Origin: Chromera velia
Taxonomy: Eukaryota
DNA: 58,862 nucleotides
Direction of reading: 5' to 3'
Assembly (NCBI GenBank): GCA_018398765.1
Contig: JAHBMJ010000072.1
Location: 1-58,862 of the forward strand
The position numbers and the translations under genes are program-made. Under the pieces are notes generated by a model. It searched no databases and was not told where the DNA came from. It worked only from the letters and a program-made list of their open reading frames with translations. How positions within the stretch are numbered: the stretch's first letter is position 1; each line of letters begins with the position of its first letter. Positions 12,177 to 57,396 of this stretch are shown piece by piece.

Positions 12177-14330
12177 TTAGTTAGTTAGTTAGTTAGAGGC
12201 TAGGTTAGAGGATGCCTCACCCCAGTTGGAGCGCTAAGCTCCCAGGCAGTACATACATGCATGGTTGTTGTTTGTTAAGTCGCCGGTAGAGTTGATCAGT
12301 TAATCACTTTCTAGAATTGGGAGATAGACATCAAAAAGACAGGCTAGATGTGAGTGTAGAAGCGATCAAATGAAATTACGGATGAAGAGTTCAGATGTAC
12401 TTGCACTGGGGAGTGGACAGTTACAATCATTTGAATTAATGAATTCCAGCTCAGCCAGGCAGTGCAGGAATTCTCTTTCATCCAGCCACTTAGCATATAA
12501 AGAAAGTCTATGCATGAAGTCATCAACACACCGAATATAAGAATCATCTACACAGAGTTTGTGGTCGCTACATTCAACAGACAGAGCACTGCTTTGGCCT
12601 TGTGGGTTAAATGAGAGCAGACATAAGAAACCAAACAGAGAGCTGTCGATTACTGTGAGAGCAGATCGAGGGAGGGCGGAAAAGGAGTAGAAACCAGAGG
12701 CGGATTTGTTACAAAGAAGAAACATAAACATGCGATGAGAGGAGGGAAAAGCTTGTTGAAGGGGGGTGAGCTTGGTAAGAGGAGGGAAATGTGAAGAAGC
12801 GATAGCCCCCGCCTACCGAGTGCAGACCTCTTCCGCAACTGCATGTCTAGCTCTGCCCTTAAAGAAGAAAGAGCCGGTGCCTTAAACTCTCCGTCGCTGC
12901 TGCTCGCTGGTACCAGGGTGTTGCGGCATTCCCACCCCCAACGAACAAACAGAATCTAGACCAGCCCAACGAAGCAGCCGCAAGGAGGCTCTCGAAAAGT
13001 TTAACTCTCGACAACTGTTTCCCTTCCAGGCATGCAACATTGTAGCGGGAACGGTGTGCATGGTTTGTGAGAGCGAGCACCACCAGTCGGCCACTCTAGA
13101 GCAAAGCAGGGCTTTTGCAGGAAGCAGGCCGAAAATATACAGGGAGGGCAAATGAAGACTGCAAGCAGACAGACGGCTAGACTAGCATACAAAACGCAGC
13201 TGCAAAGCATCGATTGTAAAAAGATCAGCATCATAAAGAGGGAAGTATTCGAGGCAATACAGTGTAACAGGGGACTAACACGCTCTAAAAACAGTCATCT
13301 GTGCATCTATACTGAGGGGACCCATGCTGGCAATCAGATGAAACACAGCCCCCAGGGCGCGGGAGGCCGAAGCAATACGCGATTCAACTATCTCACTAAG
13401 GCATCCCCCCTCAAAGAACAAGCACCCCAGGTATTTGTATTCCGTTGCCCATTCAACCTCTTTCTCTTCATATACCACCAAACTGGAGCTTTTTCTAAAT
13501 ATAGAAGCAGACAGGCGGAGAATCTTTATTTTTTTCAGATTGACCGTAAGTCTCCATTCTTTGCAATACTTCTCGAGAGCAGAGAATTTCTTTTGAAGGT
13601 CTGAGACAGAATGGGCAAGAAAGCAGAGATTGTCAGCATAACCCAAACTGTCCAGAACACAATCATCCAGCAAAACTGGCTCCGGCTTGCTTTCTGGCTC
13701 CTCTCTACTGCCTGCTTCCATTTCTATGTCTGTCCGCTCTCGCTCGACTGCCTTGCTGGCATGCCTTGCCTCGCTCTTGCTTGCAAAACACACACGGGGG
13801 AGATCATTTATGTACAGAAGAAAAAGAATAGGTGAGAGGGCATCCCCTTGCTTCACTCCAGTGGTAGACCAGCGCCCTCCCGAAAATGTAGAGAGTCCCT
13901 GTCAATCTAAGGCTTGCCCCATATCTCTCTATACATTTCACACATCATGCAGATGTTTGCCTCACTCACGCCCTCATTTCTCAGTTTCTGAATTAACTTT
14001 GCTCTTGGCACAGTGTCAAACGCCTTAGAAAAGTCAACAAAACCTACCAACAGAGCCTTTCTTTTCTTTTTGTACGAAGAGACAACAGAGGCAAGAGCAC
14101 CACCCCCCTCCCTCGTTCCCACCCTTTTACGGAACCCCAGCTGTCTAAAGTCAAGACGGACCTGGGAACGCACATGGCAGTCCATCAGGAGGCCAAAAAG
14201 TTTTGCAAAAGGGTTTATAACATAGATTGGTCTCCATTCGTTGGGAGAGGGGGAAGCAGGGCCTTTTAAAACTGGGCAAATATGCAAAACATTCCATGAA
14301 GGAGGCCAACAAGCATGAATATACATCAGG
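12177..14330 (-). mobile_element. Degenerate, 5'-truncated non-LTR retrotransposon (LINE) ORF2 with an RT domain and a (TAAC)n 3' tail
   Basis: Minus-strand fragments carry RT motifs WRPI..FAKLF, QLGFR, FVDFSKAFDTV, GVKQGDALSPILFLLYINDL, YADN (degraded YADD), EYKYLG, RIASASRA; interrupted by stops and frameshifts; (TTAG)n on + at ~12177-12196 lies at the expected 3' end. Confidence 0.9.
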
Positions 14331-15435
14331 TTAAATAAAATAAAAAGTAAAAAGCGGGATTACATTTTGAGTTGTTCTCTATTTGTTAGATAATAATTTA
14401 AACCATATATTATATTTTGTAGCAGATTCTCTATATGATATACTTAAAAAGATTAAATTATGGAATAAAAATTATAGTTACATTATGTTCCACTCTATGT
14501 TTCAATAGTGTTTCGTTTTTAAAAATTTTCTATTTGCTTAGTTATATTCAAGTTTGAAAACACAATCGATCTTATGAAAAAATCCGCTTTTCGGTTAAAA
14601 ACAGTTAAAAACGGGCTGTTTTACAATTTTAGTTTGAAGCCATGCACCTTGAAACCACTTGAGATCGACGCGCTCTTCCGAGTCGTAGAACTAGTTTCAC
14701 AAGCCTCAAGACACACTATCAGTCTGTATCTATCTAAACGGCAGCTTCGTACTAATGAAGCTTATAAGTGTCAACAGTGGTTGATTCATGAATCTGAAAC
14801 AAGTGGATCAGAAAACCTTAAAAATGAAAAATGACACTTCCGTCATAAGTTTCGTGGTATACAAAAGATGCGAAGAAACCCTCCAAGAAAGCAGGGTTGT
14901 CGAACTGAAGAGGTGGAAGTGGGAGGTCAACTGCCGAAATAGAGTTCCACTCATCCCATGGTCCATGGGGAATTCATGTAGCACCCATGATCCGATGTCG
15001 TCGAGTTTTTGTGAAACTAAAACGCTTGAAGTAAGGAATGGCAGCAAAAAATACAACAAGCTCCTTGTAACGATTGAAAGTCAGGGGCCTCTATCTTTGC
15101 AACCACTGTTTCTAAGACATCAGTAGACCTACCCCATACATGTTGATTCCGCCAGCCATCGGGTTAAAGGGGAAGTCGTTATAAGAGTTGGCAGTCGAAT
15201 CAGTCTGGCTTCCAGCACGTTCAAGCGATAACTCTGTGTCCAGCACGTTCAACGCACGACGCAGCAATGTGATTTGTTAACTTACAAAAGATGATGTACA
15301 AGCAGAAGGCATTTTCACAGGACAGACCAACCAAAGGGCTTTGCATTAGCGTTCAGAGAGGTTCCTCTAAGACGTTCCTCCTAAGTGTTAGCTTGAAGTA
15401 AGGCAGATAACTCTAAAGCCTGCTTCTCATAGCAG

Positions 15436-15670
15436 CCGCCAGTGGAGTTGAAAGGAATGAGGTCGCTGGCTTTCGTTTCTGTGAGGATTACGGGCAAATC
15501 AACATTTTTCAACTTTTTAAATGATCATTCTTCTCGCTGAAACGGATGAACCCCAAGGTTGGACGTACATCTCCGCCAGTGGCATCGAAAGGAATGAGGT
15601 CACTGGCTTTTGTTTTTGCGAGGATCATGATGTCGGGCATATCAACATTTTTCAACGTTTCAAATGATCG
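15436..15670. repeat. Two diverged ~95-bp direct repeats
   Basis: ccgccagtgg..gaaaggaatgaggtc..ctggcttt..tcaacatttttcaac..aaatgatc at 15436 and 15573. Confidence 0.8.
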
Positions 15671-16890
15671 ATCATTCTCTGCAAGACCCTCTCTGCTGAT
15701 ACATTCTCAGAGAGCCACCATCATTCTTTGCAGATTCTCCTTCATTGGGATCCTGCGCAGGCTATGTACTCAGTTCCCTTATAGGGTGCAGGCTACGAAA
15801 ACTTCGGCAAGAATGAGGAGGTATACTCACTGGGTGCTCACGAAATTTTGGAAGCTAGAAAGGACAAAAACTTTGTCCTTCGAGTTATACTTTAAGTTTA
15901 ACATAGTATCCTAGCTCCGGCAGGGCTTATAGGCTAGTGTTGCACCCCGTGTTGCACGAGCTACAATTATTGGCCTTTTATGTTACCATCGATGTACAAT
16001 AACAGAGAAGATACATTCTCAGCAGCAGTGTTCTTCTTTTTGAACTTGACTCTCAAGTTATCATCCCAAATGGCACGAATCTCAAAAGCATCACCCAGTT
16101 TTGCAGAACTTTCAAAGCAATGATCTGCAAGAGTCATAGATCGAGGGTTGACAGATATATGAAATGCAAAGGACAATCAATGGTCTTCATAGGGTCAACC
16201 TATGAAGATGGGACATCAACCCAACTCTCATAGGGTTATCCACCTATGAGTCGAACAGTGGTGCGGACTGATCCTCAACCTTCTTGAGCTTTATGATCTA
16301 GCGTATTTACATATTTCGGTCAGATCTTTTGGGGGCAGCCTTCTTGAGATTCGAAAAATGCTCGTGATACTGCATTCTGTTTGCTTTGGATAGCTTTGGG
16401 CACTGGGTCCCATGCAGCGCTTTGTTACTGAAGTGTTTGTCTGGACTTTGCGTTTAGATTTCGGCATGGTTTTTGTTGCTCTTACTATCTACTTTTTGTC
16501 TTGTAGCTTGGCAGTGCTCGATGATTCATGCTCGTTTACTTCAGAACCTTGACTGTTAACATGCTCATTTTGGAGTTTTCAACCGACAGCCTCAACAGAT
16601 GTTTAAAATGAAAGATGAACTTTTAAGTTGGCTAAGACGATTTACTCTTTATTTTGGCTTACAGATTCCTTCAGCCCATACTCTCGTTCTTTTATGATCT
16701 TCGGGGAAATGTTCACGTCGAGTTTTTCAATGTATGTCCACGGTAAGTATTGCAAAAATAGAATTTTGATGGTCGTTTGATGCATGCATAGATTTCGATG
16801 GAGTGTTACATGCATGCATGCATATTGCAATTCCTCGATGCGTGCGCGGCCCCCCTCCCCCTCGAAAACCCAAAGTGCCTGACGAACAAA

Positions 16891-17575
16891 GGATGCCGTG
16901 ATTGCAACCCCAAGCGACAGTGTGTCACTGCTATTCCACCGATGACAGGGACAAGGCCAGGCCTCGCGAAAACTGCCCTAAGTACAACTCCTCAAGCTTT
17001 TACACCTACAGGAGGCACGTTTCCCAAAATCTTTATCATGATTGCCACCCTAAACGTCACTTCTATGACTGCTATTCTACCGATGACAGGGACAAGGCCA
17101 GGCCTTGCAGAAACTGCCCTAAGTACAACCCCTCATTGACAAGCTTCTACACCCATGGACGACCTCTGATCAAAGGATACCGTGATTGTAACCCCGAACC
17201 TTACTTTTGCGACTGCTATTCCACCGATGACAGGGACAAGGCCAAGAAACGCGGCTACTGTTCCAAGTGTAACCCCTCAAGGTTCTGCACCCATAAGAAG
17301 CACATTTCCCAAAATCCCTGTCATGATTGCTACCCCAAACGTTACTTCTGTGACTGCTATTCTACCGATGACAGGGACAAAGCTAAGAAACGTGGAAATT
17401 GCCCCTACCTAAGTATAAACTATCACTCTACTTCTGTAACTGTTATTCCACCGATGACAGAGACAAGGCTAAGAAACGGTGCCACTCTCCCAAGTACAAC
17501 CCCTTAAGCTTTTATACCCACGGGAGGCATGTTTCCCAAAATCCCTATCATGATTGTCACCCTAAACGTTACTTG
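16891..17575 (+). pseudogene. Decayed Cys/His-rich repeat-protein fragment (~140-bp tandem units, about 5 copies), related in pattern to CxHGR..CxxC repeats
   Basis: Unit core ctgctattc(c/t)accgatgacagggacaag recurs at ~16928, 17069, 17213, 17354 and 17440; translation CDCYSTDDRDKAKKRGYCSKCNPSRFCTHKKHISQNPCHDCYPKRYF, with many Cys->Tyr changes and frameshifts. Confidence 0.75.
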
Positions 17576-17634
17576 TCAAAGAACGTTCGAAAAAACTGTA
17601 AGAAGAAGAACGCGGTAGCAAGGTGCGATTTGTA

Positions 17635-17819
17635 GACGTCTTTTACATAATTTGATCGAACCAGGGTGCGATTCATAGCTGGTTCCCTTTATATTACAGC
17701 GCTTTCTCAGATACAATCACAAGTGACGTCCTTTGTGCAATTCGATCAAACCAGGGTGCGATTCATAGCCGGCTCCTTTTGTATTGCAACGCTTTGTCAG
17801 ACACAATCGCAAGTGACGT
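17635..17819. repeat. Tandem duplication of ~90 bp
   Basis: gacgtc..gatc.aaccagggtgcgattcatagc..caagtgacgt occurs twice. Confidence 0.85.
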
Positions 17820-18866
17820 AAACCCTCCCTTTGCATTGCAACACTTTATCAGAGCCAATCGTACTAAGTGACAACAGCGAAAAGCAGTTTGTATGTATGA
17901 TAACTCCATATAAAAATTATTGATGTCTGTATCAAATCGCCAGCTATTAACAATATTGACCTGTATACTAGCTAATACTAGCACGAACCTGAATGGAGTC
18001 TCTTTCGCGAGAAAACGAATTAAGCAGCAGTTGAAAGACTTCAGAACGGAATCTTAAAAAAAAGTTGAAGCAAGGTAATCATCGATCAGCGATCAGCATC
18101 TCAATTAAGCGCCCATGATTCTTTTCGGCAGGTTCGATCGGTTTTCGAATGAACGAAGGGTTGATTGGTCGGAGAACCTGCGTGCGTGGTACTGATTACG
18201 TAAATTCGCTCTTATATTAAATACAAATGATTACAAGAAGCAGGGAACTGAGGGAACGAAGCGCCATGCACTTATACATAAGTTGTGCCATTGCAAAAAG
18301 TCATTTGTGCGTGCATGGGCGTTCCGCCCTTCATGTTGCAATTTGTTTTTTTTTTTTTGTTGCAATTTAATTGTTGCATTGTTGCTATAGCTTACAATTA
18401 ACGTACCATGCATGGATGATTGAGGGTTTTTTCATGTATGCCGCGTCCCCATATATGAGAGGCGGATCTAACCTAGTTTGTCGATTAATTGTTGCATGAA
18501 TCCCGTGCGCGGCCCGGCTGCATGGGCGCGCGGGGCCGGCCGCAAACTTTGACTGCATGGGCGCGCAAAACGCGCACGTACGCGCGAGTACGAGATATCG
18601 TGGAGCCGGTTGGAGACGTCGATTAAAGGCGCGATAGGCGAATAATCGTGTATGCATGATTGCAATCGATTGATCTTTGAGCGTGCTGATCGAAGTTTGA
18701 CTGCCATATATAGTGATCGAGCAAGTCAGAGATAACAGGAATCGTTATCTCGTCGAGTCATCTCTGCGCGCTTTCTGATATACCGAAAGTACAGTCTTCC
18801 CTCCTGCGGAGCCTCAAACAACACTGTATAATCGGCTCCTGGAGATATCTTGATTGGCCAAACGAC

Positions 18867-22593: not shown

Positions 22594-24396
22594 GTCAATG
22601 AGGAGTGATGAAGATGGAAGAAGAAGGACGCCAGCAGAGGAAAACAGAGAAAAGAGGTATCTGAACGGGGGGGTGGTTTTTTGAATTTTAAGGTCAGACT
22701 ATGGGAGCCGAGATCAGCACAGTCGATGACTAAAGAAGGAAGCGGCGGTCCGTCGCTGTGTTTCTGTCGGTACGTGCATGTGTGTGTCAGTGTGACGGAC
22801 GGGAATCTGTTTGACGGGAGTCTGTCATCAGAGACCCTAACGAAGTTTCTAATCCATGAGCAGTGTTGTGGGGCCGTGTGAATTCCGTGCGGTGGAAACA
22901 CACCGCATGCGTACGACAAAGCGTGCGTCACATGGCGTGCATGCTGGAAATGAGTATGGCAAGATGTGAGGCGGAATTAAGTAGACTGAAGAACTACATG
23001 ATCGTGGAAGAGTGAACGATAGACAGAGCGTAAGTCATCCTGTTACTCATGAGTGAAGAGCAGTCTTTCCGATCTCGGAAGTAGAATCCGAAGTACGGGG
23101 AGCTGCATGTGCGTGCGTAGCGTGACGTTCTATGTTCGTGTCATGTGATTACGGGACTTGCGGGTCACGAGGGGTAGAGCCGTATAGCTGGCCAGACTGG
23201 CAAAATAATCACAGAATTCACATCCTGAGTCGTGAGTCGTTCTGTGACCGATGCAAAGTCATCTTATCTCCTTCGCATTTCTTCTCTCTTCGTCTCTTTA
23301 CATCCTTCCTGGATGTGTTCAATGAGTGTGTTCAATGACACGGAAATTAACTTGAACCGTTTTGAATTTGACTTGTCCTAGGACTTGTCGCGTGCGGCAG
23401 TTGAGGAACTGCGACAGCCACGCGTGCATCTGAAGAGCTCAAGTTGATCTTTCAACCAGTTACATATAGATTATTCAGGTTACTAGTGACATAGTATCAG
23501 TAGCAACGAATCACTCTTTTTTAATAAACAACATAACAATATGTTACACTTAGTAATTTACAGTTTAAAATCTTTATAGAATCATAGGTGACATAATACG
23601 CCTAGTCATAAATATATATTCAATTAAAAAAGTTGTAACTATTTTACATATAGTACCTAGACTGAGATCGATCTAGATCGATCGATGTATATATAAATTC
23701 AATGTTACAACGGCAGATTTGAAGTGTTGATTCAAGCAGTGTAGCATGGCATCCTGGAAAATAACAACTTTTTTAGCAACTTTTCCCTGCCTAAGTTACA
23801 GCTAGTTGCAGCCTATAACATTAGAAATATCGATCCAGCTACCTCTGGATATAGATGGCGCATCAAAGTCATAGTCATAGTCACGGCAGATATAGACAAT
23901 AATAAGTCACAATATTCAAATGATCAATTTTTTTTAAAAAAAACGTTTTATGAAACAATTAAGTATCTCGTTAATTTGCTGTTCCATCGTACCGTTGTTC
24001 TATTGAAGTTATAGGCAATAGAATGAAGTTAGGTTTTTAGATCGAAGGCTAGTAAGAACGACATAGACTAGTCTTATTTTGTTAGTAAATATTTAGTTAT
24101 TAAATTGAGCAACAGGAATGATAGATTAAGAAGTCATGGAGAAAGATCAATCGGAATGTAAGAGTCAAGGTCTTATAGGGCTGATATACAGTAAAGGGTG
24201 TTTACCTTGACAGAAGATTGGTAGAGAATGGATGGAAATGAATTAAACACTCGGTATAAAAGAAATAAGTCAGACGATATCAGAAAGCTGATAAAAGAAA
24301 TAAGGTTAAAAAGCTTGAGTAAAAAAAAAGCAATAGAGTTAATAAGAAAGACAGAAAATAGATTGATAGAAGGTCAAGCAATGAGTCTGATGATAC

Positions 24397-24530
24397 ACCG
24401 ATACAGAACTGATTAATCGGTTCTGTATCGGTTAAGGCAAAGTATGTCAAACTTGATACACTTTCAAAAATGAAAGTCTGTCAAACATGATACACTTACA
24501 CAATTGATACACTTTCACAATTGGCAACCT
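24397..24530. repeat. 36-bp near-perfect palindrome followed by short tgatacactt direct repeats
   Basis: accgatacagaactgat|taatcggttctgtatcggt has one mismatch; tgatacactt occurs three times at ~24454-24514. Confidence 0.8.
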
Positions 24531-26609
24531 TTGCAGGAAACAAGCATAAAATGCAACTTTGAAAAAAAAGAAAAGAAAGAATCGATTAAAAACTTGACCT
24601 TGGAGTAACAGAATTGAATCCCAAATCGAGTTGACTTACTTTCTGGAAGAATTGACTTGAAGCGATCTAAACCGACCTTCACTGACTTCAATAGCATTGA
24701 GTGAATAATTAAAAGATATATTCAACTTCAATTCTAGTTCTATTCTTTCGTTTCGGCTTCGTCTGACCTACTGAGTCCGGAGGAGCACGGAACACCGTAA
24801 GCTTAGTAGTGGTAAGCCCAGAACTTTGATCATAATATATAAATCAATGATGATGCACAATCTAGTACACAATCCTGAAAGGCACAGGACGGCCACAGGC
24901 CTTTGCACAGGCAAAACATGTCGAAACAGGTTTTTATCCCCCTAAAAACTCTTTTTGTGTACTTGACCATACAAATATAACATACTTATACAAACAGCTA
25001 GACAATTTAATAGTTTGTGAACATTGACGAATATACGCTTACCACTGTTAACATTAGTTGGCGTCAACATTGGCTAAGCCAAAATAAGCCAAAAAACAAC
25101 CTTTTGCCAGCTAAGCCAATAGATTAGCCAATTAATCACATTTAGCAACTCTGACTGCTGTAAAGTGATTAAAGTCTAAATCAAGGTATTTTTAAACTTA
25201 GTGTTTAGAAGTGGGTTTAGAATTCATTGATATAAAACACTGTGTCATGGCCCTATGTTAGTTAGTTAGTTAGCTATATGTCATTTGAGACTTAATTTTG
25301 AGTTGTCTTGTATTCCCAGGAAATGATTTCTCAGCCAATTGCAAGTAGCTGAACTTGCTCAGAATATGGAGACGGCAGTAAGATTTTTGTGCCCTGCTGG
25401 CTGGGTCGTTGTCTGACGGGCATAAACCAGAGATCGAAAACTCACAGCTTCTAACAGCCTAGCTAACAGCTTCGTCCGTTTCGTTCACTCACGATGATGT
25501 CAAAGCCCCCTGCATGCAGAGTCACTGTGTTTGAAAGCAGACAGGCAGACGCAGACAGCTTTCGCAGCGAAAGTAATTCCAACGTAATTCCAACACGTTC
25601 CAACAGCGGATGTCACCGGTAGCCCTACCCACGAAATCGACCCACGACCGAGAGATGAGAACAAGAATGTTCTGAAGTATACGTGAGGTGTAGAAACAAC
25701 GGGGGAGGCTGAACATGTATCCAACACCCTCCTTGGATGATCGTGAATGATGCAGAACCCCGCTCATGAATCGAAGGATCGCATCGTTGTCAGCAAAGAG
25801 CTCTTGGATCTTTGTTCGTCATGTCTTTCACCAAAAGGCAACGAAGTGATGTAACATCATGAACGTAACTGGGGTCATACACAACAGAAATATCGCCATG
25901 CATGTACTAATATACACGAAACAATCCATCCAGAACCTGGGAACAGACACATGTCACACAGCGGTCTATTGACAGGGGTGGACATGCATGCACCTTTGGA
26001 CCATTCATCTTTGCTAGCGACAGCCAAGGCAGAAAGAAAGAGACAAGCAGGCGATTAACAGAACAGAGACGGACCTGTTGAGAACCGTTGAGAACCACCG
26101 TATTTCTGAATCCTGACTGAACGGTTGGAGACGTATATACGGTTCTGTGATTACTCTGCCCACTGAGACGTACAGTAACTGAGGCGACTGCTGGCGAGCA
26201 AGCAGACCAGCGTGTGGCTACTCCGTCTTGATGGTCCTCGGGGGGGCAGTGAGATAATGCACTTTGTGAGGACTCTCCGCTCTCTTCATTCTGTTGACAA
26301 AGGTCAGTCAACTCCGACGCGCAGATAGAACGAGTCAAACGATGTCATGTTTTGCGTACATGCTGTCCGTGTGCAACACAACTATATAACACAACTGCAT
26401 GTCACACTGCTGAAGCTGCAACATAGTGCAACACCAACATAAATCAGCACTTCGATCCAGCTACACCTTGAAGGATGTGGCTCATTAATTGTCATCCCTC
26501 CAGTCCTCACAAAACCTTTCCTCGCAATGCATAAGGAGCAATCGTGGAACCTCTGAAGGCTGTGCAGTACTGCTGCCTCATTGGTCGGTTTTTTCAATTC
26601 CACTCAAAC

Positions 26610-28345: not shown

Positions 28346-29469
28346 TCTTTTCTAGTTTCTTTTCCTTTTTCATAGCCTTCTTGTTGTCTCTCTCTCTTTC
28401 ATGTATACGTCAAGGTAGACGCCGACACTCCAGATCATGCGTCTAAGTGGTTTCCTGAGAAGCCGCACATCGGACATTCGGCGTATTGGGGCAGGAATTA
28501 AGCCGCTCCTCTGGAAACTAGTCCAGATATAAATCGATTCTTGTCCCGGTCCTAGTCCTATAGTGATATAGACCTAATCATAATTTGATTCGTAAGAAAT
28601 CCTATCTTGCTAGCTATCTTATAAATCATATAGAATAAAGTTTTTATTCAAATTTCTTGTGTACATGTATAGTCATTAATTTTTTATTACATTTCTCGAT
28701 CTAGAGATTTTTTTAAAGTTATGACTTGCTAGTGCAGAAGGAAGCGTGATAGTATAGGTAATATATATGTTGCACTATAAATGAAAACTAGAATTAAAGT
28801 CTATAATATGCATCCATTATGTACACGGAACGCATCAATCAACCAATCAATCAAATTAATCATTGCATGTACATATGCATTTCTAAAAAAAATGTTATAA
28901 GAAAAACGTCAAAACCTTTAGGCTTTAGGATAGGACAGAATTTTATATTCTGGCAATCCCCGTGATGTACCGCGGTCCACCGTCCACTGGACCACTGCCA
29001 GGTATTGGTATTTCTAGATCGGTTTATCTCCAGACCCACTATAGTAGACCTATCACTTAATTTATTGTTATTCCAAGCGGCCAAGCCAGACTTTTTTTCT
29101 CGCTAACCCTAGCGCAAACCTAGCCTTTCGGCTAGCCTTCACTACGGCCCTTAAAGCCGCCCTTTAGGGTTCTTTTTTGTTCGACTAGTTGTTCGGTCGT
29201 TTCCACCGCTTCAAAGACGGCTGCGATCGGTTCAATATCTTTTCTCATCTTGTTCACTGACAGTTCGTTTGAAGTTTGACTGGTCTAACACAGCCTGCAG
29301 AAGCTCACATGCATGGCATCAAATTGGCATCAAATCATCGGCTTGTACGTCATCTCAAGCACTTGCAGAGTCACTTTGCGTCCAGATACCTTAACTTCTC
29401 TGCTCCGTCTCTCCTTCTCTCCGCCCTTTGGTCCCCGCCACCTGCTCATGCAAACATCCAGTCATTCGA

Positions 29470-33694: not shown

Positions 33695-34018
33695 GTTGTC
33701 GGACTGGCAGAAAGCGAGAGAGGGTTGATCGAGAAGTGGAAGAAAGAATTCATCGCACCTGCACGGATTCTCACTTGCTTGTTTGTATAAGTGGAAGCCT
33801 CGCACGGTGGTTGACTGTTTGTTTCGTTGACGGGAGAGTCCAGGCAGACGGCTTGTGCAAGCTTTGGGCGCCTCCGTCGCTTTCATCGTTTCCATTTCCC
33901 CCCAGACTCCTCTTAATTCATTTATTTTTCTGTTCCTAGTTCTGTTCCCGATCGGCGATGAAGTTCGTTGATTCTTCACTTCGTTTGGTTATGCATGTGT
34001 ATTTGTGTTGCCACTGTT

Positions 34019-34131
34019 TTAACTGCAGACTGCAGTTAACTAGTCTGCAGTTCACTGCACTAGTTAACTGCATGCAGTAGTAAATACAGTTCCGAGTCTA
34101 GCTGCAGTTAACTGCACTGTCACACTGTCAC
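34019..34131. repeat. Nested palindromic cluster built from ttaactgca / tgcagttaa units
   Basis: ttaactgcagactgcagttaactagtctgcagttcactgcactagttaactgcatgcag...ctgcagttaactgcac. Confidence 0.7.
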
Positions 34132-34212
34132 AAAGTCATTGTATGCAAGCATAGGCCTAGGCATATAGGCATACTAGTAGGCACTAGAGTAAGCATAATT
34201 CTAGGCATATAA

Positions 34213-34301
34213 TTACTTACTTACTTAATTGTAGTTAAGCCTAGAGTCTCTGAAACCAGAGACAAATGGCAACCCATGCATGCAGTTGTAAACAAAAGGA
34301 G
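34213..34301 (-). mobile_element. Short retroposon 3'-end fragment with a (TAAG)n tail, copy 1
   Basis: Reverse complement matches 52695-52783 with one substitution; ends in a tetranucleotide tail. Confidence 0.75.
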
Positions 34302-36199
34302 TATTATGATTGATTCAATTTATCTAGCAATTTATGAATAAATCAAAAATATTATAGCAAAAGTAACCACAATTTTAAATAGTTGGCTAGATATATAGTT
34401 ATTGATTAAATTATTACTCACTTCCTAAAAAAATAGTAGCTTAATCATTGAGCTTTTGAATGCTTTTCACCAGACCTAGAATCAAACAATACGACTCAAA
34501 CTCATTTTTTGATAGTAGTACTCAATTAATTAAAAAATGAACCATGCAAATCTAGTACTCAATACTAGTTAACACTCTGCGCGTACATACATGTACACAT
34601 CGCAATCTGTGGAAAGAGTATAAAACATTGTAAGGGTTTAATTGTTTTAGATTTCATTCATACATGTGTGTAAATTTGCGATGCTCATTCAATTAAGGCG
34701 GGCAGACTGGTGAAGGGTTGCAGCAATTCACCTGAGCAGGAATAATGAAGCACAGTGCCCTGAAGAGCTCCGTGTGGTACAAAGCGAACGACTTGTGGGT
34801 CGCTGACGCCTCTAGCTTCTCTGTCAGTTGGTCTTCTTGCAGACATTTGCAGGTCAATATTGCAAAGTTTGCGTAGGAAGACAAACGGTGTGTTTGACTC
34901 AGCGAGGCTCCTGCCCCTTCAGTTTCCTGTGTGTGTTCTGATTTGAAAGACGTGCAAGCGTGCACACCCTGCACCGGATAACCCTCGACCATCCCCCCCC
35001 CGATCCCGCCCTGTATAAAGTCATGAGATTTGCCGCGCGACACGGGAGCAGCAAAGTGCTCTCGATGCACTCAAGTTGTTCCCTGTGGGCCAGGGTGTTG
35101 TTTGTAGACAGAGGAGAGCGGAGGAAATAGAAGGCAAGAGAAGAGACGAGACGAGGAAAGAGAAGAAAAAGGGAAAAAAGAATTTCCCCCTCTGCGTCGG
35201 GACTTGCGAATCCGGGGTTCTGGAAGTACATTCTTTTTTTCATCGACCTTCCTTGAAACACCCCGTGCGAGAAGAGACCCGAGAAAGTCGCTGGCTGACA
35301 ACAGGATGGAAAGCGAGCGACAAATGATGCAAGGGTCGGAACCCTCTCTCCTGGTCTCGTTTTTTTTTTGCTTCTTGCTTTCTTTTCTTTTTTTCGCGCG
35401 CCGTGCCCACATATGCAGAGGATACTCAAGATTTGCACCGATCTTCTTTGCATCTCACAGAGTCAGATGCCCCGCCAATTGGTCCTGTGAATTGTCTCTT
35501 TCCTCTTTTCCTTTTCCCGAAAGAGACGAGACACACAGACGAAGAGAGAGAGATTGGGATAAAATGAGGCAGAACATCAAATCGAAAGGCCTGGCAAGAT
35601 AAGAAGGACCCCCACCAAAGACACAGCACCAGAACAAGAGAGAGGCATAGAGACAGGCAGAGGAAAGGAGTTGGATAGAATTACAGCTCTGAGACAGAAC
35701 AGAGAATGGAGAGAACGAACGGAAGAAGTTCAACGGTCCATTCTTTGATGCAGCAACGCAAACAGAGAACGGAGGGAGGAAGGGTGGTGAAAGAAGGTCG
35801 TGAAGTCATTCAATTGACCTTTCTTCTTACAGGCTCCCTCTCCTCGTCTCAATCACCTGCTCCTTCTGTCACTTCCCCCTAGGACAAACAGACGAAAACC
35901 AAACCTCTCTTCACCGCTCTCCACACTTCTTTCTACTTTCTTCCTCCTCCACCTTTCCACATGCAGACTTGCTTCCTTCCTATTGCCGTACATGCATATT
36001 CCCTTACATGAACCCAAAAATTCCCCAACAGCCGGCCAGACGTGCAGCACAAAGAAACGGAAAACACCGGTTCTCTGACCCCCCCCCCACCCCCATGCAT
36101 TACTTCAGACTTCTTACTGGCTTCTTCTCTCCTCTCCACTTCCCTCGCTCCTCTGAAACATCAATCCAACTTAACAACCACTCTTGTTCTTTCTTATTT

Positions 36200-49345: not shown

Positions 49346-49795
49346 GTTAAGGAGCCACAATGCTGCTAGATCTGCATTTTAATAATCGGATTCATATCTT
49401 GGATCTAGTCTTGGATGATAAATCTGATTGTCGTATTTGAATATTATAACATCCCTTAGTACAAACCATGCCAAAGATATGGTCAAGTTGAGCTAGCAAG
49501 TTGAGTCAATTGAAGTTGAAATAGTTCTCAGGCAGCGTCAGGCTATCCCAGATTCCGAAACATACAGCTTACTGCAACTAAAATAGTTTATGGTTGAATT
49601 ATATATGTAACTATGTACAATATAAAATATCTACGCTCCGCACTACATTAAAAAAAAAAAAAAAAGAAGAGAAAAAGTTTTTTTTTATAGATTTTTTTTC
49701 TATTTGTCATAGTATTCAATATGCAAACAACTGTTGTTCAAGTGTTGTAAGAGTGTTGCACGGGGTGTTGCATTGAAAACCATATACTTTTCAGT

Positions 49796-49796
<1 letters not shown>

Positions 49797-49828
<32 letters not shown>
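49797..49828. repeat. (TA)n microsatellite
   Basis: Seen directly. Confidence 0.9.
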
Positions 49829-49832
<4 letters not shown>

Positions 49833-51653
49833 AAGTTGGCAACTTTCTTTTTTTTCTTTTTTTTTTTAATAGTCCAAATTATAGAGTGCAGAGCCTAGTA
49901 AAATATATTATTAATCTACTTAAAAGAAAAGCAAATTCAGCTTTCTTTCTGAAAAAAAAAGAAAACGTAAAAATTGCATACAATGATTTAATATACTGTG
50001 TTATTACATTCCCTCCTTTGATAACTAATCTTCTTATGTTCTTTCCTGCTTATACAATTGAGTGCACTATTCACCTGCTGGAAGCGATAGACAAAAGACA
50101 GCAGCAAAGAGGAAAGGGGGGTCGCGCGCGTCGGTTCTCATGCCTTGCTCTGTGCTTCTCGATTGATCAGATGTTGCATTCTTGGAGTCAGTCCGTCTGA
50201 TATTGCATGCACGGTTCTGGTGTGTCAGCACCATTGTATATGCAATCAGACCCGTGACTTCTCGCGAATGATGCGCGCGTAGAAGGTGCATACATTAATT
50301 ATTCACTTTTTTCGGCGTCCCCACCCGGATCGCACAAAAGTGAATTTTTTGCATGCATTCTTTTTGCTCGATTATTTGACTTACCCAGAAGTGAGAGCAT
50401 GCCGTCATATTGACCAATCTTGGAGATGGTGATTTCGGTAGAGTCCACCATTGGTCCCTTAGCAAATAGTACGTGCATAGCAGGACTGTCTCGGCTGTTG
50501 GAAGAGAACTTATCATACTAGAACATTCCTACTGTCCACATAAGGGTTACGATGGGGGTCTGTGAGGAAATTACAGATTACAACTTTTTTCGTTACAGTT
50601 TTTCCGTAACTTGGCGCCTTCGACACCAATTTTTTATTATAGAAAATTTCTAAGAAAAACGGTAATTCGGGCGTTGTGGGGCCAACATAGGACCCCGGTA
50701 TAGAAATCTCACGCCGTTCTTCATACAGTGCATGCAATCATATGCATGCTTGTACAAACGAATGATTACATTGATTCCAAGACCAGTAAGGCAAAGGAGC
50801 CAATTAACCATTGCCAACCGATGAGGTATGATCTTCTTAAGCTGCTGTTAATCTTTTGACGCAGGTGTCTGTATATCTGTATGTTGCGAACTGCACCTTC
50901 TCTTTGTGAACTGCAGAGAGCGAACTGTTTCTACAGGACTGTTAGATAGATCAGGGGGGGCATCTTCGAGTCCGTCTTTCTCAAATCAGCCCTCTACCGC
51001 TAAGGCAAAGGCGAAGGGCAAAAGAAGGCCAAAAGGCAAGGCAAAAGCCAAAGTCAGCACTTAAGAAGACCACAAAGGAAGGGAGGGGGGTGGAAAAGGC
51101 TTGCAGGGTCGATCTTTTGTGTTGTTTTGTGAAACTTTTGAATGTAAAGGTACCTATAGACGTCGAAAAGCAAGTTTTAAACGGATTGAACTCAGTCTTT
51201 TCCCTATAGTATTTAATATCCTGGTCAGAATGAGATTTAAGAAGGATAGTTTGAGAAAAAAAGATATACAGCAAACTTCATGCAATCTAACATATTTTAA
51301 CTAGTATTTTTATTTGAATTTTAGTAAGTTCTGAATTTATATTGGGTTTTCTAGTGGGTTTTGAACTTTGAATTAAATGTACACAGTCCAATTGCGTACT
51401 CTGCCTCGCTCTTTCTTGTCTGGTAGTTCTCTTTTCACTTCTCTCTTTTGAGCATGTGCTGGTGGGGGAAAGAGACACGGTGGATCCTACGAAGAACACT
51501 GTATTCACTGTCCTGCAGTCGAAGGTAAAAAGGTGATCGACGATGCGGTGCATCGATTGTCTGCGTGCGTGCAAACAGAGTAGCTTAGATCCAAACTTCA
51601 CTCACTGGCAGAGAGAGTGAAAGAAAGAACAGGAATCGGTGAAAGGGTCTGCA

Positions 51654-52439
51654 TAGTGCTAGGAAAAGGTTCAAGGTTCAAGGTTCAAGGTTCACTTCGA
51701 AGTAATGAACCTGAATCAGGTTCAAAAACAGGTTCACTTTTAATTAATAGAAACCTCATTTTTGCCCGGCCTGTTGCCCCCCCCCTTGCTCCCCCCCATG
51801 GCTCCCACCACTCCCAGCTATCACGGGTGGCACCCACACATCTGGGCTTGCATTCGTTCCAACCTTTTGCCACATAAAATCGGATTGAAACTCTGTTTTC
51901 GAATACTCATCAGTGCACCCGATCATATGAATTGGTAATATTATGTCACCTGCTTTGTACTTTGCATGAGGAGCAACATTCTTGTTCAACCCCCCTCTCG
52001 TCCACTTCATCATTCCTTTAACGTCTCTTGTTCAACTCTATACTTCCTCATTCCTTCAGTGGAGACTGTCTGTTTTGATGCGGGGCCTTGCAAGTGGAAA
52101 ACTTGGTAAGTCAGTGTACTTTTTCACTTCTACAACCATCAGCATGAGTTTTCATGCTGACATATGATGCTGACATATGCTGACATGCGTTTGTCCGACA
52201 CAATAGATTGAACCGGCTGGGGACAGTTGCTATGCGCGCAACTCCAGCTCCAGCTCCTTATTTCACCTATATCGGCCGTGGGCGGCGCGGGCCTGGCCGG
52301 CTTTGTGTTAGTGGCCGCGTGTCTGGCCTCCAAAACAGGTTCAAAACAGGTTCAACAGGTTTAACAGGTTCAAAACAGGTTCAACAGGTTCACTTTTTCA
52401 GATTTGAACCTTTTCTCAATGAACCTTTTCCCAGCCCTA
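51654..52439. mobile_element. Non-autonomous hAT-type DNA transposon (MITE), 786 bp
   Basis: 20-bp TIRs tagtgctaggaaaaggttca / tgaaccttttcccagcccta (2 mismatches); perfect 8-bp TSD GGTCTGCA at 51646-51653 and 52440-52447; subterminal AGGTTCA arrays at both ends. Confidence 0.92.
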
Positions 52440-52694
52440 GGTCTGCAGAGCAAGATGGACTGCTACAGCTGGGGGAAGAGGTATCGGGGAAGAAGAGACA
52501 TATGTGGGAGAGCTCGTTTCATTCATTAGAGACCGGGAGCTGAAGAAGGCAAGTACACTGATCGAAGCTTATCTGAACTTGAAATGAGTGCGCGCGCGTC
52601 TTGTATGGTTGTTCAGCCTTTAGCTTCAGCCTAGGCTACGGAGGGTCGTGGTTGTTTATATTCATGCAGCAGCAGGCTAAGCTGCGGCGGTTTG

Positions 52695-52791
52695 CTCCTT
52701 TTGTTTACAACTGCATGCATGGGTTGCCATTTGTCTCTGGTTTCAGAGACTCTAGGCTTAACCACAATTAAGTAAGTAAGTAAGTAAGTAA
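52695..52791 (+). mobile_element. Short retroposon 3'-end fragment with a (TAAG)n tail, copy 2 (may extend upstream)
   Basis: ctccttttgtttacaactgcatgcatgggttgccatttgtctctggtttcagagactctaggcttaaccacaat(taag)n; inverted match to 34213-34301. Confidence 0.75.
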
Positions 52792-53024: not shown

Positions 53025-56000
53025 TTATTGCACCTTTCCAACAAATCTGTTTCCCTTCTGAAGATTCTCTCTCGACCACATCGGCTGGAGGTTGGAAAAA
53101 TGCAGACGTGCAATCTGCGTCTCTTTGCTTGGCCTCTCCCCACCAGGCCCTACGTACATGATGGGGGTGATATGGTCGACATGCCAGTGAGTGCCGTAAT
53201 TCTGCCACGACATTCCGGGGTTGCCGTGGAAATCGTCTTTTTCAAGGTGGGACTTCAAGTTTTCGTACGAGCAACCCAAGTATTCGTGGGTACGTTTGCG
53301 CTCTGGGACAGGCCTTCCAGAGCGAATCTTTCTCAACACCTTTGTGATCACAGAACGTGAAATAGCCATCAGCCGAAAGACCGCGTCTTCTTTGTATCGC
53401 GCTATAAAGCTCTCTCGCCGTCTTTCCTTTCGTTTTGCGAAAGAAGGGTTGTCTTTCTGGCACACCGGACAGTCAGATCGAACGCGGTCGTGTTCGCAAA
53501 TCTGACTTCCATTACACTGCCGACACAATTCACGTCTACGGCCGTGCTCGCAGATACCTTTCCCATTACACTCCTTGCAACGGTACCTGTACCTTCCATG
53601 TTCACAAAGTCCTTTTCCACCACACTCCTTGCACACATACTTCTGCCGTCCGTGCATGCAGAAGGAGTTTCCTCCACAATCCCTGCACCGGTCTCGTCGG
53701 CGTCCATGGACACAGATTCTACTCCCCCCGCACTCTTTGCACCAATATTTGATTCGGCCATGAATGCAAATGGAGCCCCCTCCACACTCTTTGCAGTGGC
53801 CTCTCTGTCGTCCATGTTGACATATTCCCTTCCCTCCACATTCCCTGCAAGTGTACTTGTATCGGTTGTGTACACAAATGGCACTTCCCCCACATTCCTT
53901 GCACTTATCTCGCCTCCTTCCATGTGCGCAGATTCCGTTTCCTCCACAGTCTCTGCAAAACCTTCGTTGGCGTCCGTGCTCGCACAGCCCCTTCCCGTCG
54001 CAATCCCTACAGTACCGGCGCTCTCTTCCGTGTTCACATACTGCACTACCCCCACAATCCTTACAATATGACCGCTGGCGCCCGTGACAACAAATCCCCC
54101 CCCCCCCGCACTCCTTGCAGAGATACCTTTGCCTGCCATGTGGGCACTTGCCCTTCTGTTTTGGCTTTGTGTTTGTCAGCTTTTCAGATGCGGTTACAGA
54201 AACCCTACCAGAAGTGCAAGAATGAGACCTGAATAATCTTGTTTCACTTGTCTGTTGCTTGGGGCTGTTTCTCAACTCGCTGTCCCCACCGGGGGACTGA
54301 ATCACGCCAACAATGTCCTCTAACAGAATCTCTCTTCCCATCCCGAAACTCTCTGACAGCGCGGAGGAACGAGAAGGAAAGGATAAAACAGCAAAACCTC
54401 TCACCCCAGACCTCTCTGCATTGATTCCCCGCTTCGGGTGCTGGTTCACGACAGTGGTGGTGCCCACGGAGAGACTCACTCGATGTGCGGNCAATTCACG
54501 TCTACGGCCGTGCTCGCAGATACCTTTCCCATTACACTCCTTGCAACGGTACCTGTACCTTCCATGTTCACAAAGTCCTTTTCCACCACACTCCTTGCAC
54601 ACATACTTCTGCCGTCCGTGCATGCAGAAGGAGTTTCCTCCACAATCCCTGCACCGGTCTCGTCGGCGTCCATGGACACAGATTCTACTCCCCCCGCACT
54701 CTTTGCACCAATATTTGATTCGGCCATGAATGCAAATGGAGCCCCCTCCACACTCTTTGCAGTGGCCTCTCTGTCGTCCATGTTGACATATTCCCTTCCC
54801 TCCACATTCCCTGCAAGTGTACTTGTATCGGTTGTGTACACAAATGGCACTTCCCCCACATTCCTTGCACTTATCTCGCCTCCTTCCATGTGCGCAGATT
54901 CCGTTTCCTCCACAGTCTCTGCAAAACCTTCGTTGGCGTCCGTGCTCGCACAGCCCCTTCCCGTCGCAATCCCTACAGTACCGGCGCTCTCTTCCGTGTT
55001 CACATACTGCACTACCCCCACAATCCTTACAATATGACCGCTGGCGCCCGTGACAACAAATCCCCCCCCCCCCGCACTCCTTGCAGAGATACCTTTGCCT
55101 GCCATGTGGGCACTTGCCCTTCTGTTTTGGCTTTGTGTTTGTCAGCTTTTCAGATGCGGTTACAGAAACCCTACCAGAAGTGCAAGAATGAGACCTGAAT
55201 AATCTTGTTTCACTTGTCTGTTGCTTGGGGCTGTTTCTCAACTCGCTGTCCCCACCGGGGGACTGAATCACGCCAACAATGTCCTCTAACAGAATCTCTC
55301 TTCCCATCCCGAAACTCTCTGACAGCGCGGAGGAACGAGAAGGAAAGGATAAAACAGCAAAACCTCTCACCCCAGACCTCTCTGCATTGATTCCCCGCTT
55401 CGGGTGCTGGTTCACGACAGTGGTGGTGCCCACGGAGAGACTCACTCGATGTGCGGAGAATGTATGGAGCGGGCTTGAAAGGGTCTGCAGAAAAGTGACG
55501 GGGCTGCACTCCTTCAGTGGGGACCTTACGATAGGCTGCAGCTGCAGAGGGCAGACGAGTGTGACTTGCTTTGAGAATTGACATTGTTTTTTCTGAAGCG
55601 ACACGGCAGGTAAGCCCGCAGAAGACTTCCCCACATATCTGTTTCCCTTCTGAAGATTCTCTCTCGACCACATCGGCTGGAGGTTTGAAAAGTGCAGACG
55701 TGCAATCTGCGTCTCTTTGCTTGGCCTCTCCCCACCAGGCCCTACGTACATGATGGGGGTGATATGGTCGACATGCCAGTGAGTGCCGTAATTCTGCCAC
55801 GACATTCCGGGGTTGCCGTGGAAATCGTCTTTTTCAAGGTGGGACTTCAAGTTTTCGTACGAGCAACCCAAGTATTCGTGGGTACGTTTGCGCTCGGGGA
55901 GAGGCTTTTCATCTCTGCAAGCAGACAGGCACTTGTATACAACATTTCGAGTGTTTTTTGTCAAGCGGTAGACAAAATCTTCTTTGCATCGCAGTTTTTC

Positions 56001-56921
56001 TCGTTCTCTCCTCTCCGCAAATGCTGGGTTGTCCTTCTGGCACACTGCGCATTTTGAGCGAACCCTGTCGTGTTGGCATATTTGACTTCCCTTACACTCC
56101 TTGCACGTCGTCCGCAGGCGGCCGTGCACGCATACTCCACTTCCGCGGCACTCTACACAGCGGTACCTGTGCTTTCCATGTTCGCATATTCCCTTGCCTC
56201 CACATTCCCTACACCAGTACTTGCGGCGGCCGTGTTTGCACAGCGAACTTCCCCCACACTCTTTGCAACGGTCTCGCCGCCGACCGTGGGGGCAGAGCTT
56301 TCTGGTCTTCTGTGTTTTTGGGATATAAGGTGCCAGCCGGTCTTTTGTTCCTTCGGCCCTTCCAGCGTCTGAGGAGGCTGCTGTGAAAACGGATGGGGAA
56401 ACGTGGAAACGGTCCTGGGTCTTTGATGTGTTGGGAGTTTCTGCCCCGGTGGATCCTAGGACCCGGAGGGAAGACGTATTTTTGAAGCAAATTTGTAACT
56501 CATTATGCCTCTTGCTTGACGACTGTGGACCTACAGTGTCGCGGACTTTCTGCTTGTCAGCGTGAAGACCCTTGTCCTCGTTCTGTCCCTTCCAGGCGGT
56601 AGGCCCGGGTTTCAAACATGAAAAATGCCGACTACAGCCTGAAGGCTGGACGAAGTTCGTGCCAAACAAGCGGAACGATCCCGAGAAACAAAATCTGGAT
56701 CCAGGAAGCCGAGAAGACGAAATTTCAGCTGAGCTATAAATTGGCTCTCTGGAATGCAGCGTCGAAAGCGTGTTTTTCTCTGGTTCTACATGAAGGGCGG
56801 ACACCTCGCACTTGCACTGTGCAGAATTTCTGTTCTTTTCGAAAACTCTGCGCTGCGTCAAGCATCGGCGAGCGTGGCATCCTGTCACACTTTGACAAAG
56901 GAGCTGATGGACGCTTCTCAT
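53025..56921 (-). CDS. Intronless protein with two [18-aa CxHGR..CxxC repeat array + HNH (beta-beta-alpha-Me) endonuclease] modules; first ATG at 56921; about 322 aa shorter if the N-flanked duplication is an artefact
   Basis: Repeats such as CEHGRQRRFCRDCGGNGI; the nuclease block YLGCSYENLKSHLE..GMSWQNYGTHWHVDHITP..LHFSNLQPMWSRENLQKG occurs twice (55620-55895 and 53025-53305). Confidence 0.88.
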   Translation of the reverse strand: MRSVHQLLCQSVTGCHARRCLTQRRVFEKNRNSAQCKCEVSALHVEPEKNTLSTLHSREPIYSSAEISSSRLPGSRFCFSGSFRLFGTNFVQPSGCSRHFSCLKPGPTAWKGQNEDKGLHADKQKVRDTVGPQSSSKRHNELQICFKNTSSLRVLGSTGAETPNTSKTQDRFHVSPSVFTAASSDAGRAEGTKDRLAPYIPKTQKTRKLCPHGRRRDRCKECGGSSLCKHGRRKYWCRECGGKGICEHGKHRYRCVECRGSGVCVHGRLRTTCKECKGSQICQHDRVRSKCAVCQKDNPAFAERREREKLRCKEDFVYRLTKNTRNVVYKCLSACRDEKPLPERKRTHEYLGCSYENLKSHLEKDDFHGNPGMSWQNYGTHWHVDHITPIMYVGPGGERPSKETQIARLHFSNLQPMWSRENLQKGNRYVGKSSAGLPAVSLQKKQCQFSKQVTLVCPLQLQPIVRSPLKECSPVTFLQTLSSPLHTFSAHRVSLSVGTTTVVNQHPKRGINAERSGVRGFAVLSFPSRSSALSESFGMGREILLEDIVGVIQSPGGDSELRNSPKQQTSETRLFRSHSCTSGRVSVTASEKLTNTKPKQKGKCPHGRQRYLCKECGGGGICCHGRQRSYCKDCGGSAVCEHGRERRYCRDCDGKGLCEHGRQRRFCRDCGGNGICAHGRRRDKCKECGGSAICVHNRYKYTCRECGGKGICQHGRQRGHCKECGGGSICIHGRIKYWCKECGGSRICVHGRRRDRCRDCGGNSFCMHGRQKYVCKECGGKGLCEHGRYRYRCKECNGKGICEHGRRRELXAHRVSLSVGTTTVVNQHPKRGINAERSGVRGFAVLSFPSRSSALSESFGMGREILLEDIVGVIQSPGGDSELRNSPKQQTSETRLFRSHSCTSGRVSVTASEKLTNTKPKQKGKCPHGRQRYLCKECGGGGICCHGRQRSYCKDCGGSAVCEHGRERRYCRDCDGKGLCEHGRQRRFCRDCGGNGICAHGRRRDKCKECGGSAICVHNRYKYTCRECGGKGICQHGRQRGHCKECGGGSICIHGRIKYWCKECGGSRICVHGRRRDRCRDCGGNSFCMHGRQKYVCKECGGKGLCEHGRYRYRCKECNGKGICEHGRRRELCRQCNGSQICEHDRVRSDCPVCQKDNPSFAKRKERRRESFIARYKEDAVFRLMAISRSVITKVLRKIRSGRPVPERKRTHEYLGCSYENLKSHLEKDDFHGNPGMSWQNYGTHWHVDHITPIMYVGPGGERPSKETQIARLHFSNLQPMWSRENLQKGNRFVGKVQ
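53526..55456. repeat. 965-bp direct duplication (53526-54490 = 54492-55456) separated by a single N; probable assembly artefact
   Basis: Copies appear identical, with the same ORF translations at an offset of 966, and the junction is an N. Confidence 0.85.
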
Positions 56922-57396
56922 CACTTTTTCACACAAGATGTCTGCAAGTTCGCACTCAACAAGATGCAGACTGGGAAATGAGGCCAGAAATCGAGGTGCA
57001 AGTCAAGTCTTGCAAGCAACAAACTCCTCTGATCCTTCGAAAATCGGAGCGAAAATCTGTGTGAGCCAGGTGTCCAACATCGTAGAGGCTGGAAGAAACA
57101 GTAAGTACCCCTTTTGAAGTCCACAAAAGAAGGCTGTAATCTTATAGATGCATGAGTACATAGATGTTGCATGTTGCAATGAACTGCATGTGTTGCTATA
57201 AGTGTTGCAAGGTATTGCAAGGCATACACTTTGCAGTTAAATTCTGCGTGCGAATATAGGCGCGCATTGCGCGCCGACGTATTTCAGACTATCAGCTAGA
57301 AAAGTATTATGAGAGAAGTATGCTACAGTAAGAAAAATTGTGTGGGGCAACCGGGGGCAACTTTCCCGGGCAGCAGTAGTTAATGTTGAAATTTCT

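Follow-up and report, generated by a model that had tools for sequence, protein, structure and literature searches.

Does a decayed repeat array in an alga carry the mark of a genome defence known from fungi? The locus lies in a stretch of 58,862 nucleotides of Chromera velia (hereafter the window), an alga that is a free-living relative of the malaria parasite. The original prediction held that its tandem units had undergone hypermutation of the type of fungal repeat-induced point mutation (RIP), with CpA converted to TpA, and that the same change recurs in unrelated repeats nearby. We find that the transposons of this genome do accumulate strongly directional C-to-T changes, and that their context order is not that of classical RIP.

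The contig was taken to be non-fungal, and this is borne out by its closest named relatives, which are Chromera velia proteins: the best 17 matches of the Gypsy pol at 1–1506 all belong to this species (named as such for 16 of them), one of them at 100% identity over 54% of the query. Exact sequence matching placed one of eight window ORFs (3833–5284) in UniRef/EukProt, in a single-member cluster. Exact ORF look-ups for alleles of other strains matched 0 of 1 and 1 of 8 ORFs, none from another strain, and searches for Chromera DNA in metagenome and viral collections gave no match, no match and one distant locus at 28% identity. Single-copy DNA in the contigs of sequencing runs shows 0–1 differences per contig and the variants recur in runs from two studies, so that a sequencing artefact is rejected.

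A repeat array with a C-to-T excess

The array is the following feature.

16889–17575, forward strand: decayed tandem array of units of about 141 nt encoding a Cys/His-spaced repeat, a single locus

It comprises six units or part-units of roughly 141 nt, and its Cys/His-spaced repeat ORF occupies 16902–17408, the reading frame being broken by a frameshift near 17410. Contigs of two runs (X1 and X2) span it without differences at single-copy depth. In these runs contigs also link 17730 both to 17290 and to 17673, and coverage is twice as deep at 17588–17808; elsewhere in the genome there is probably a related locus. No homologue of the ORF was found by a near-length word search, by HMMER on cluster representatives or in the Atlas. 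By eye, its Cys/His spacing is loosely like that of the zinc-finger repeats at 53025–57002.

All 21 sequence motifs quoted in the original prediction are found between 16891 and about 17551. The statement built on them, that the units differ mainly by one TpA-producing class of change, fails, as CA/TA-type differences account for only 59 of 290 pairwise differences and transversions for 110. Array columns carry a C/T polymorphism at 16/33 CpA, 7/15 CpG, 9/20 CpT and 9/26 CpC positions. When columns are polarised on the majority base, C>T changes affect 15/95 CpA, 9/95 CpC, 4/43 CpG and 7/81 CpT sites, and the comparison of CpA with CpC and CpT combined (16/176) gives p = 0.11, whereas the total of C>T changes (35/314) exceeds that of T>C changes (15/309, p = 0.005).

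The direction of change had been read from the protein, structural Cys codons having become Tyr, and a stronger CpA signal depends on this polarity. If three columns with a Tyr majority are taken as Cys, the CpA count becomes 24/108 (p = 0.003), but the measure is biased because a TGY codon can reveal only a CpA change, the count is affected by events that units may share by descent, and no intact homologue confirms the polarity. Sliding RIP indices along the window do not single out the array. The array thus has a C>T excess with a CpA preference that is weak alone, which is insufficient by itself for a claim of RIP.

C-to-T changes dominate among Gypsy copies

The window begins with a young retroelement whose open frame serves as the codon reference for its paralogues.

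1–2358, forward strand: young Gypsy pol with RNase H, integrase zinc finger and chromodomain
1507–1509, forward strand: premature TAG in the Gypsy pol

The stop arose as CAG>TAG, because the residue is Gln in all seven paralogues that cover it; it is a CpA>TpA change, as the original prediction had supposed. The stop is absent at this position from paralogue P0002, which matches at 99.3% identity over 556 residues.

Seventeen paralogous proteins (15 of the 24 main-cluster members and two singletons) form Gypsy family 1, and 16 of them could be aligned to the window codons. Changes were scored at non-synonymous sites, setting aside seven window-minority positions and three multi-step changes. 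C>T changes, counted on both strands, make up 79 of the 90 single-step changes: they affect 79/758 sites, against 8/684 for T>C and 3/3497 for transversions, so that per site a C>T change is about 120 times as frequent as a transversion. The rate depends on the 3′ base (chi-square p = 2e-9), with CpG at 37/173 (0.21), CpA at 24/162 (0.15), CpC at 13/257 (0.05) and CpT at 5/166 (0.03), and CpA exceeds CpC and CpT combined (p = 4e-5).

Sixty-eight of the 79 C>T sites are singletons private to one copy; since most changes are private in this way, they arose after insertion. Of the 13 copies with mutations, 11 are changed on both strands. The load per copy is 0–4.9% of scorable C sites and no copy is saturated, although the sample consists of gene models and of contigs with at least 80% similarity, a choice that favours intact copies and could miss heavily hit ones. 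Load is uneven between copies (chi-square 49.8, 15 df), and copy-to-copy variation in the CpA:CpG ratio is not significant (p = 0.15).

For two further Gypsy sets, amino-acid changes were scored on alignments of at least 80% identity and codon usage was borrowed. They give CpG 74/263 (0.28), CpA 28/120 (0.23), CpC 26/279 (0.09) and a fairly high CpT of 29/164 (0.18), with T>C-type changes at 9/518 (0.017).

Editing of retroelement DNA by an AID/APOBEC-like deaminase would require no DNA methyltransferase (DNMT) and would produce an almost pure C>T spectrum in retroelements, as seen here. Such editing is marked by strand bias and a 5′ sequence preference. The Gypsy changes are evenly divided between strands (plus 36/373, minus 43/385, p = 0.55); their context effect is 3′ rather than 5′, the 5′ effect being weak and without a TpC preference, and a transition excess is also present in a duplication at 17635 that is not a retroelement. 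The absence of strand bias and of TpC preference largely refutes editing of reverse-transcription intermediates, and we regard a deaminase as highly improbable.

LINE copies and shorter repeats

DNA-level data come from a second retroelement, for which contigs of four runs were aligned over 11400–18000.

12204–14359, reverse strand: broken high-copy LINE-like retroelement with RVT_1 in two frames

Its summed depth in run X1 reaches 5784, against 12–18 for single-copy DNA, contig depth being a rough copy count only. Counted by place in X1, changes comprise 168 C>T, 177 G>A, 82 T>C and 71 A>G, and each transversion occurs 4–20 times. The window copy was polarised from the 40 rows listed out of 673, 37 of which had a differing majority and three of which were dropped (share below 0.5). 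Among these listed rows, family C has become T in the window at 33 of 37 polarised sites (CpG 12/148, CpA 8/309, CpC 6/264 and CpT 7/328), with an excess at CpG only (p = 0.001) and none at CpA (8/309 versus 13/592, p = 0.82).

A second alignment, over 12795–12955 in two runs, includes all 39 variant rows, and 61 C/G sites within 12825–12925 were scored. Here the mean T share across LINE copies is 0.061 at CpG, 0.038 at CpA, 0.016 at CpT and 0.012 at CpC; CpA exceeds CpC and CpT combined (p = 0.016), and CpG and CpA are not significantly different (p = 0.12). T>C changes are found at 0/40 A/T sites of 12825–12925, where four transversion rows lie near 0.5%, and the 161-nt stretch has no indel row. 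No +2 base preference of the CAG or CWG type stood out in either the Gypsy or the LINE data.

These data bear on whether repair steered to genes could leave silent repeats to fix ordinary deamination and G:T mispairs with no methylation involved. All four contexts show a raised C>T rate, Gypsy T>C changes are about ten times as frequent as transversions, and loads are gradual and fall on both strands, as such repair would have it. Loss of mismatch repair usually raises both indels and T>C changes, against which stand the lack of any indel row in the 161-nt LINE stretch and the 0/40 T>C sites; nor does gene-directed repair by itself predict the 3′ order in which CpG exceeds CpA and both far exceed CpC and CpT. 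We consider this explanation unlikely.

Four shorter repeats of the window complete the comparison.

17635–17819, forward strand: direct duplication of 90 nt, 15 transitions and 1 transversion
15436–15679, forward strand: direct repeat pair of about 100 nt, 9 transitions and 4 transversions
51655–52440, no strand assigned: element with terminal inverted repeats, putatively hAT (a label from the earlier note)
34210–34301, forward strand: retroposon-like end, 98% identical to an inverted copy at 52695–52786

By context, the 17635 duplication gives CpA 5/13, CpG 4/10, CpT 4/10 and CpC 0/5, and the 15436 pair CpG 4/8 and CpA 2/12. The ends of the putative hAT element differ by one TG/TA change and by transversions, and the retroposon pair by one TG/TA change and one transversion. 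The claim that the change extends to the 17635 duplication, the terminal inverted repeats and the retroposon pair is thus upheld, as a transition excess in the first and a single TG/TA difference in each of the others. Retroposon ends at 12178–12204, 34200–34230 and 52760–52790 bear short tetranucleotide tails (TTAG or TAAG repeats).

A host gene family lacks the pattern

The window also contains a host gene whose family serves as a control.

53025–57002, reverse strand: open zinc-finger/HNH-type gene of two modules, its family showing an ordinary spectrum in the same genome

We compared three C. velia paralogues labelled zinc-finger/CBM20, at 81–86% protein identity; they represent one family on which selection may act, not single-copy neutral DNA. 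Of the 68 changes in this trio, 21 are C>T-type, 11 T>C-type, 32 transversion-only and 4 multi-step. The corresponding numbers among 430 changes in two Gypsy sets are 345, 44, 30 and 11, an approximately 18-fold difference in the ratio of C>T-type to transversion-only changes (odds ratio 17.5, p = 1.5e-17). Four Gypsy trios treated by the same method as the host trio give C>T-type fractions of 56/65, 47/64, 36/47 and 49/62. Repeats are therefore subject to a strongly directional C>T process from which a host gene family is free.

A genome-wide bias, hidden in genes by selection or GC-biased conversion, would also produce a difference between repeats and genes. Single-copy DNA offers 0–1 differences per contig, the host comparison is not of single-copy neutral DNA, and the C share at host four-fold sites is lowest before G (101/214), so that some CpG decay may be general. 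Against such a bias, one in two single-step changes of the host trio requires a transversion, a mix that corresponds to a transition/transversion ratio of about 2, when transposon rates would give 4% transversion-only; HNH-family paralogues placed on the window codons show 28 transition-type and 46 transversion-type changes; and in genes preservation is best at CpA, C being kept before A at 94/120 and G after T at 107/120 host four-fold sites. We judge a hidden genome-wide bias very unlikely.

Among 56 zinc-finger units in 12 family members of C. velia, a ligand is altered in only 1. At 68 four-fold sites of the two zinc-finger/HNH modules there are 7 transitions and 19 transversions, a saturated comparison of little weight. 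TpA is strongly avoided at the four-fold sites of host exons across the window (observed/expected (o/e) 0.34), possibly because selection, or a T>C process working in the opposite direction, acts in genes; six hand-called introns have a GC content of 0.49 and a TpA o/e of 0.43. At their HNH ends (53034–53305 and 55626–55897) the two modules share about 270 nt of near-identical sequence and are saturated upstream of it, a pattern suggestive of recent gene conversion. Between them, 53526–55461 is a 970-nt direct duplication of 99.8% identity whose halves meet at an N near 54491. It is probably an artefact of assembly, in which case the 1325-codon ORF is inflated. The zinc-finger/HNH family has many metagenomic relatives.

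Sequence composition and AT-rich blocks

Five sharp AT-rich blocks interrupt the window.

23460–25300, 28550–29130, 34000–34680, 49350–51400 and 57450–58862: AT-rich intergenic blocks, GC 0.30–0.34, TpA o/e 0.87–1.10

The intergenic blocks are rich in A+T and in TpA, and TA/AT reaches 1.2. Simulated decay under the Gypsy rates predicts a CpG o/e of 0.1–0.3 at a GC content of 0.35–0.41, and four of the five blocks, the exception being 34000–34680, have values of 0.59–0.89; because their CpG is less depleted than simulated, these four are not simple end products of decay. A tblastn comparison of the blocks with a set of transposon proteins found no match. For the array, simulated Gypsy decay gives GC 0.48, CpG 0.52 and TpA 0.78, compared with an array composition of 0.48, 0.56 and 0.87. 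The RIP substrate index, (CA+TG)/(AC+GT), is 0.99–1.49 over all 13 region classes, which indicates no depletion of CpA.

The repeat changes differ from classical RIP

The predicted RIP-like hypermutation of repeats is right in that C>T change is biased to transposons and CpA is mutated above CpC and CpT; it is wrong in that CpG leads CpA. As in RIP, C:G>T:A transitions dominate in repeats (79/90 and 345/430 in Gypsy sets, and 33/37 in the LINE among the rows listed). The proposed check, a CpA preference of C>T change, gave a positive result on both Gypsy (p = 4e-5) and LINE copies (p = 0.016), with CpA at about 2.7–3.5 times CpC/CpT in these two best data sets (Gypsy family 1 and the LINE copies). 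However, CpG is the top context in every transposon set, with a lead over CpA that is not significant on its own (p = 0.16 in Gypsy, p = 0.12 in LINE), and CpA ranks second in the Gypsy sets and across LINE copies, so that CpA is not the predominant target as it is in RIP. RIP attacks any long similar duplication whatever its function, and the host trio, one family compared at the protein level, has an ordinary spectrum. Nor are dense mutation and CpA depletion seen: loads are 0–4.9%, in a sample that favours intact copies, and the substrate index is 0.99–1.49. The equation of the dinucleotide signature with that of fungal RIP is therefore incorrect. With CpG in the lead, mild loads, undepleted CpA and unaffected host duplicates, the phenomenon is not classical RIP. 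A transposon-biased C>T hypermutation, at CpG and then CpA, is nonetheless real, and it is likely that the pattern marks an undescribed silencing system of the DNA-methylation type rather than fungal RIP.

The comparison with RIP as described in Neurospora and other ascomycetes (PMC4352252) is instructive on both sides. Shared with Chromera are repeat-centred C:G>T:A change, raised CpA, a gain of TpA and nonsense codons; what differs in Chromera is the lead of CpG, the mild loads, the undepleted CpA, the sparing of host duplicates and the lack of a recorded RID. Closer are the transposon signatures of Tuber melanosporum, Aspergillus niger and A. fumigatus, attributed to MIP-like methylation followed by deamination, which involve the same two contexts. 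The Tuber row in Table 2 of PMC4352252 has the Chromera order, CpG first and CpA second; Tuber differs in being a fungus with RID/Masc1 and Dim2-class genes (PMC4352252), none being listed for the non-fungal Chromera.

A true RIP- or MIP-like defence would have a DNMT4/RID-related enzyme mutate repeats at CpG and CpA in a sexual or cyst stage. For this speak the excess of CpA over CpC/CpT in both Gypsy and LINE, the predominance of CpG with secondary CpA in Tuber melanosporum, a RID/Masc1-like gene in all five PMC4352252 species with a CpA signature, a DNMT4-class gene listed in Vitrella (PMC10538959), the AT- and TpA-rich intergenic blocks (TA/AT up to 1.2) and the variation in load between copies. 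That variation is explained by differences in copy age; long host duplicates at 81–86% protein identity are spared and a linked duplicate, some 270 nt long, shows almost no differences; no sampled copy is saturated, although heavily hit ones could be missing; and the substrate index is at least 0.99 in all 13 region classes. On balance such a defence appears quite unlikely.

A candidate methylation-type process

Methylated transposons of plants, animals and diatoms decay by deamination of 5-methylcytosine (5mC). The Chromera pattern shares with these systems a transposon-biased, two-strand, gradual C>T change with CpG at the top, and CpG being the fastest context, on both strands and after insertion, is what 5mC deamination produces. 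A restriction to repeats would also be expected, and it may hold here, to judge from the ordinary spectrum of the host trio (one family) and from the composition of genes. By analogy, the pattern appears to work like methylation-driven repeat decay and to resemble the CpG-plus-CpA signature of some fungi.

Our preferred explanation, to which we give an even chance of being correct, is that silent repeats are cytosine-methylated by a candidate methyltransferase and that the methylcytosines then deaminate, giving C>T at CpG and then CpA. A DNMT4-like protein or a diverged DNMT2 copy would methylate cytosines of silent repeats, CpG above CpA; deamination to T would let changes accumulate slowly; and targeting would operate through silencing or a chromatin region rather than through homology. 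On this view the repeat-rich block adjoining the LINE would hold two bystanders, the Cys-repeat array and the 17635 duplication. This reading builds on the observed spectrum, context order, strand symmetry and copy-private changes, and on a host family that does not have the pattern.

Several points count against methylation. The LINE copy of the window has no CpA excess, CpT is fairly high in the two further Gypsy sets, four of the five AT-rich blocks retain more CpG than simulated decay predicts, and the host control is a single family of three proteins. Gypsy T>C changes are above transversions (0.012 versus 0.001), which methylation leaves unexplained. The published count for Chromera is of DNMT2 only, for which no detectable 5mC is expected: Supplementary Table 1 of PMC12344493 gives it 0 DNMT1/3/4/5/6 and 4 DNMT2, and the same source reports undetectable 5mC in species with only RNA-type DNMTs. 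This count fits gene-directed repair, which needs no DNMT, and it sets Chromera apart from 5mC-decay systems, as no DNMT1/3/5 is listed. PMC12344493 also confines DNMT4/RID to fungi; its table has all zeros for Phaeodactylum and Vitrella, in contradiction to PMC9998398 and PMC10538959.

In PMC10538959 the Vitrella protein CEM15752 is listed as a DNMT4 in a clade with diatom proteins; one of two trees separates this clade from canonical DNMT4. PMC9998398 describes diatom DNMT4 as RID-related and diatom transposons as methylated, with non-CG methylation scarce; Chromera differs in that CpA is at 60–80% of the CpG rate. The DNMT4 class of diatoms and of Vitrella, the other sequenced chromerid, thus offers a candidate enzyme. 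Chromera was not found in ten supplement files of PMC10538959, and 12 of the 23 supplement files of PMC9998398 have no Chromera or Vitrella row. PMC4501334 reports about 30 Mb of transposons in Chromera and 1.5 Mb in Vitrella; no passage on methylation or RIP was found in its available text. The original prediction knew of no earlier description in chromerids, and in agreement with this, searches of the open-access literature found none of RIP, 5mC or transposon hypermutation.

Implications for Chromera

A published survey leads one to expect no 5mC in Chromera, yet its transposons bear a strong methylation-like footprint with a large CpA component. Either a DNA methyltransferase that has gone unrecognised, DNMT4-like or derived from DNMT2, silences repeats in this alga, which is free-living and closely related to apicomplexans, or its repeats hypermutate without methylation. 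At stake are what non-fungal DNMT4 does, whether DNMT2 can act on DNA and whether RIP-like defence is found in fungi alone. A bolder and doubtful possibility is a mutagenic genome defence in Chromera, in which a DNMT4/RID-related or repurposed DNMT2 enzyme would mark transposons at CpG and CpA and convert the marked bases to T. If true, this would be the first RIP- or MIP-like system in an alveolate and would provide the first function for the non-fungal DNMT4 clade.
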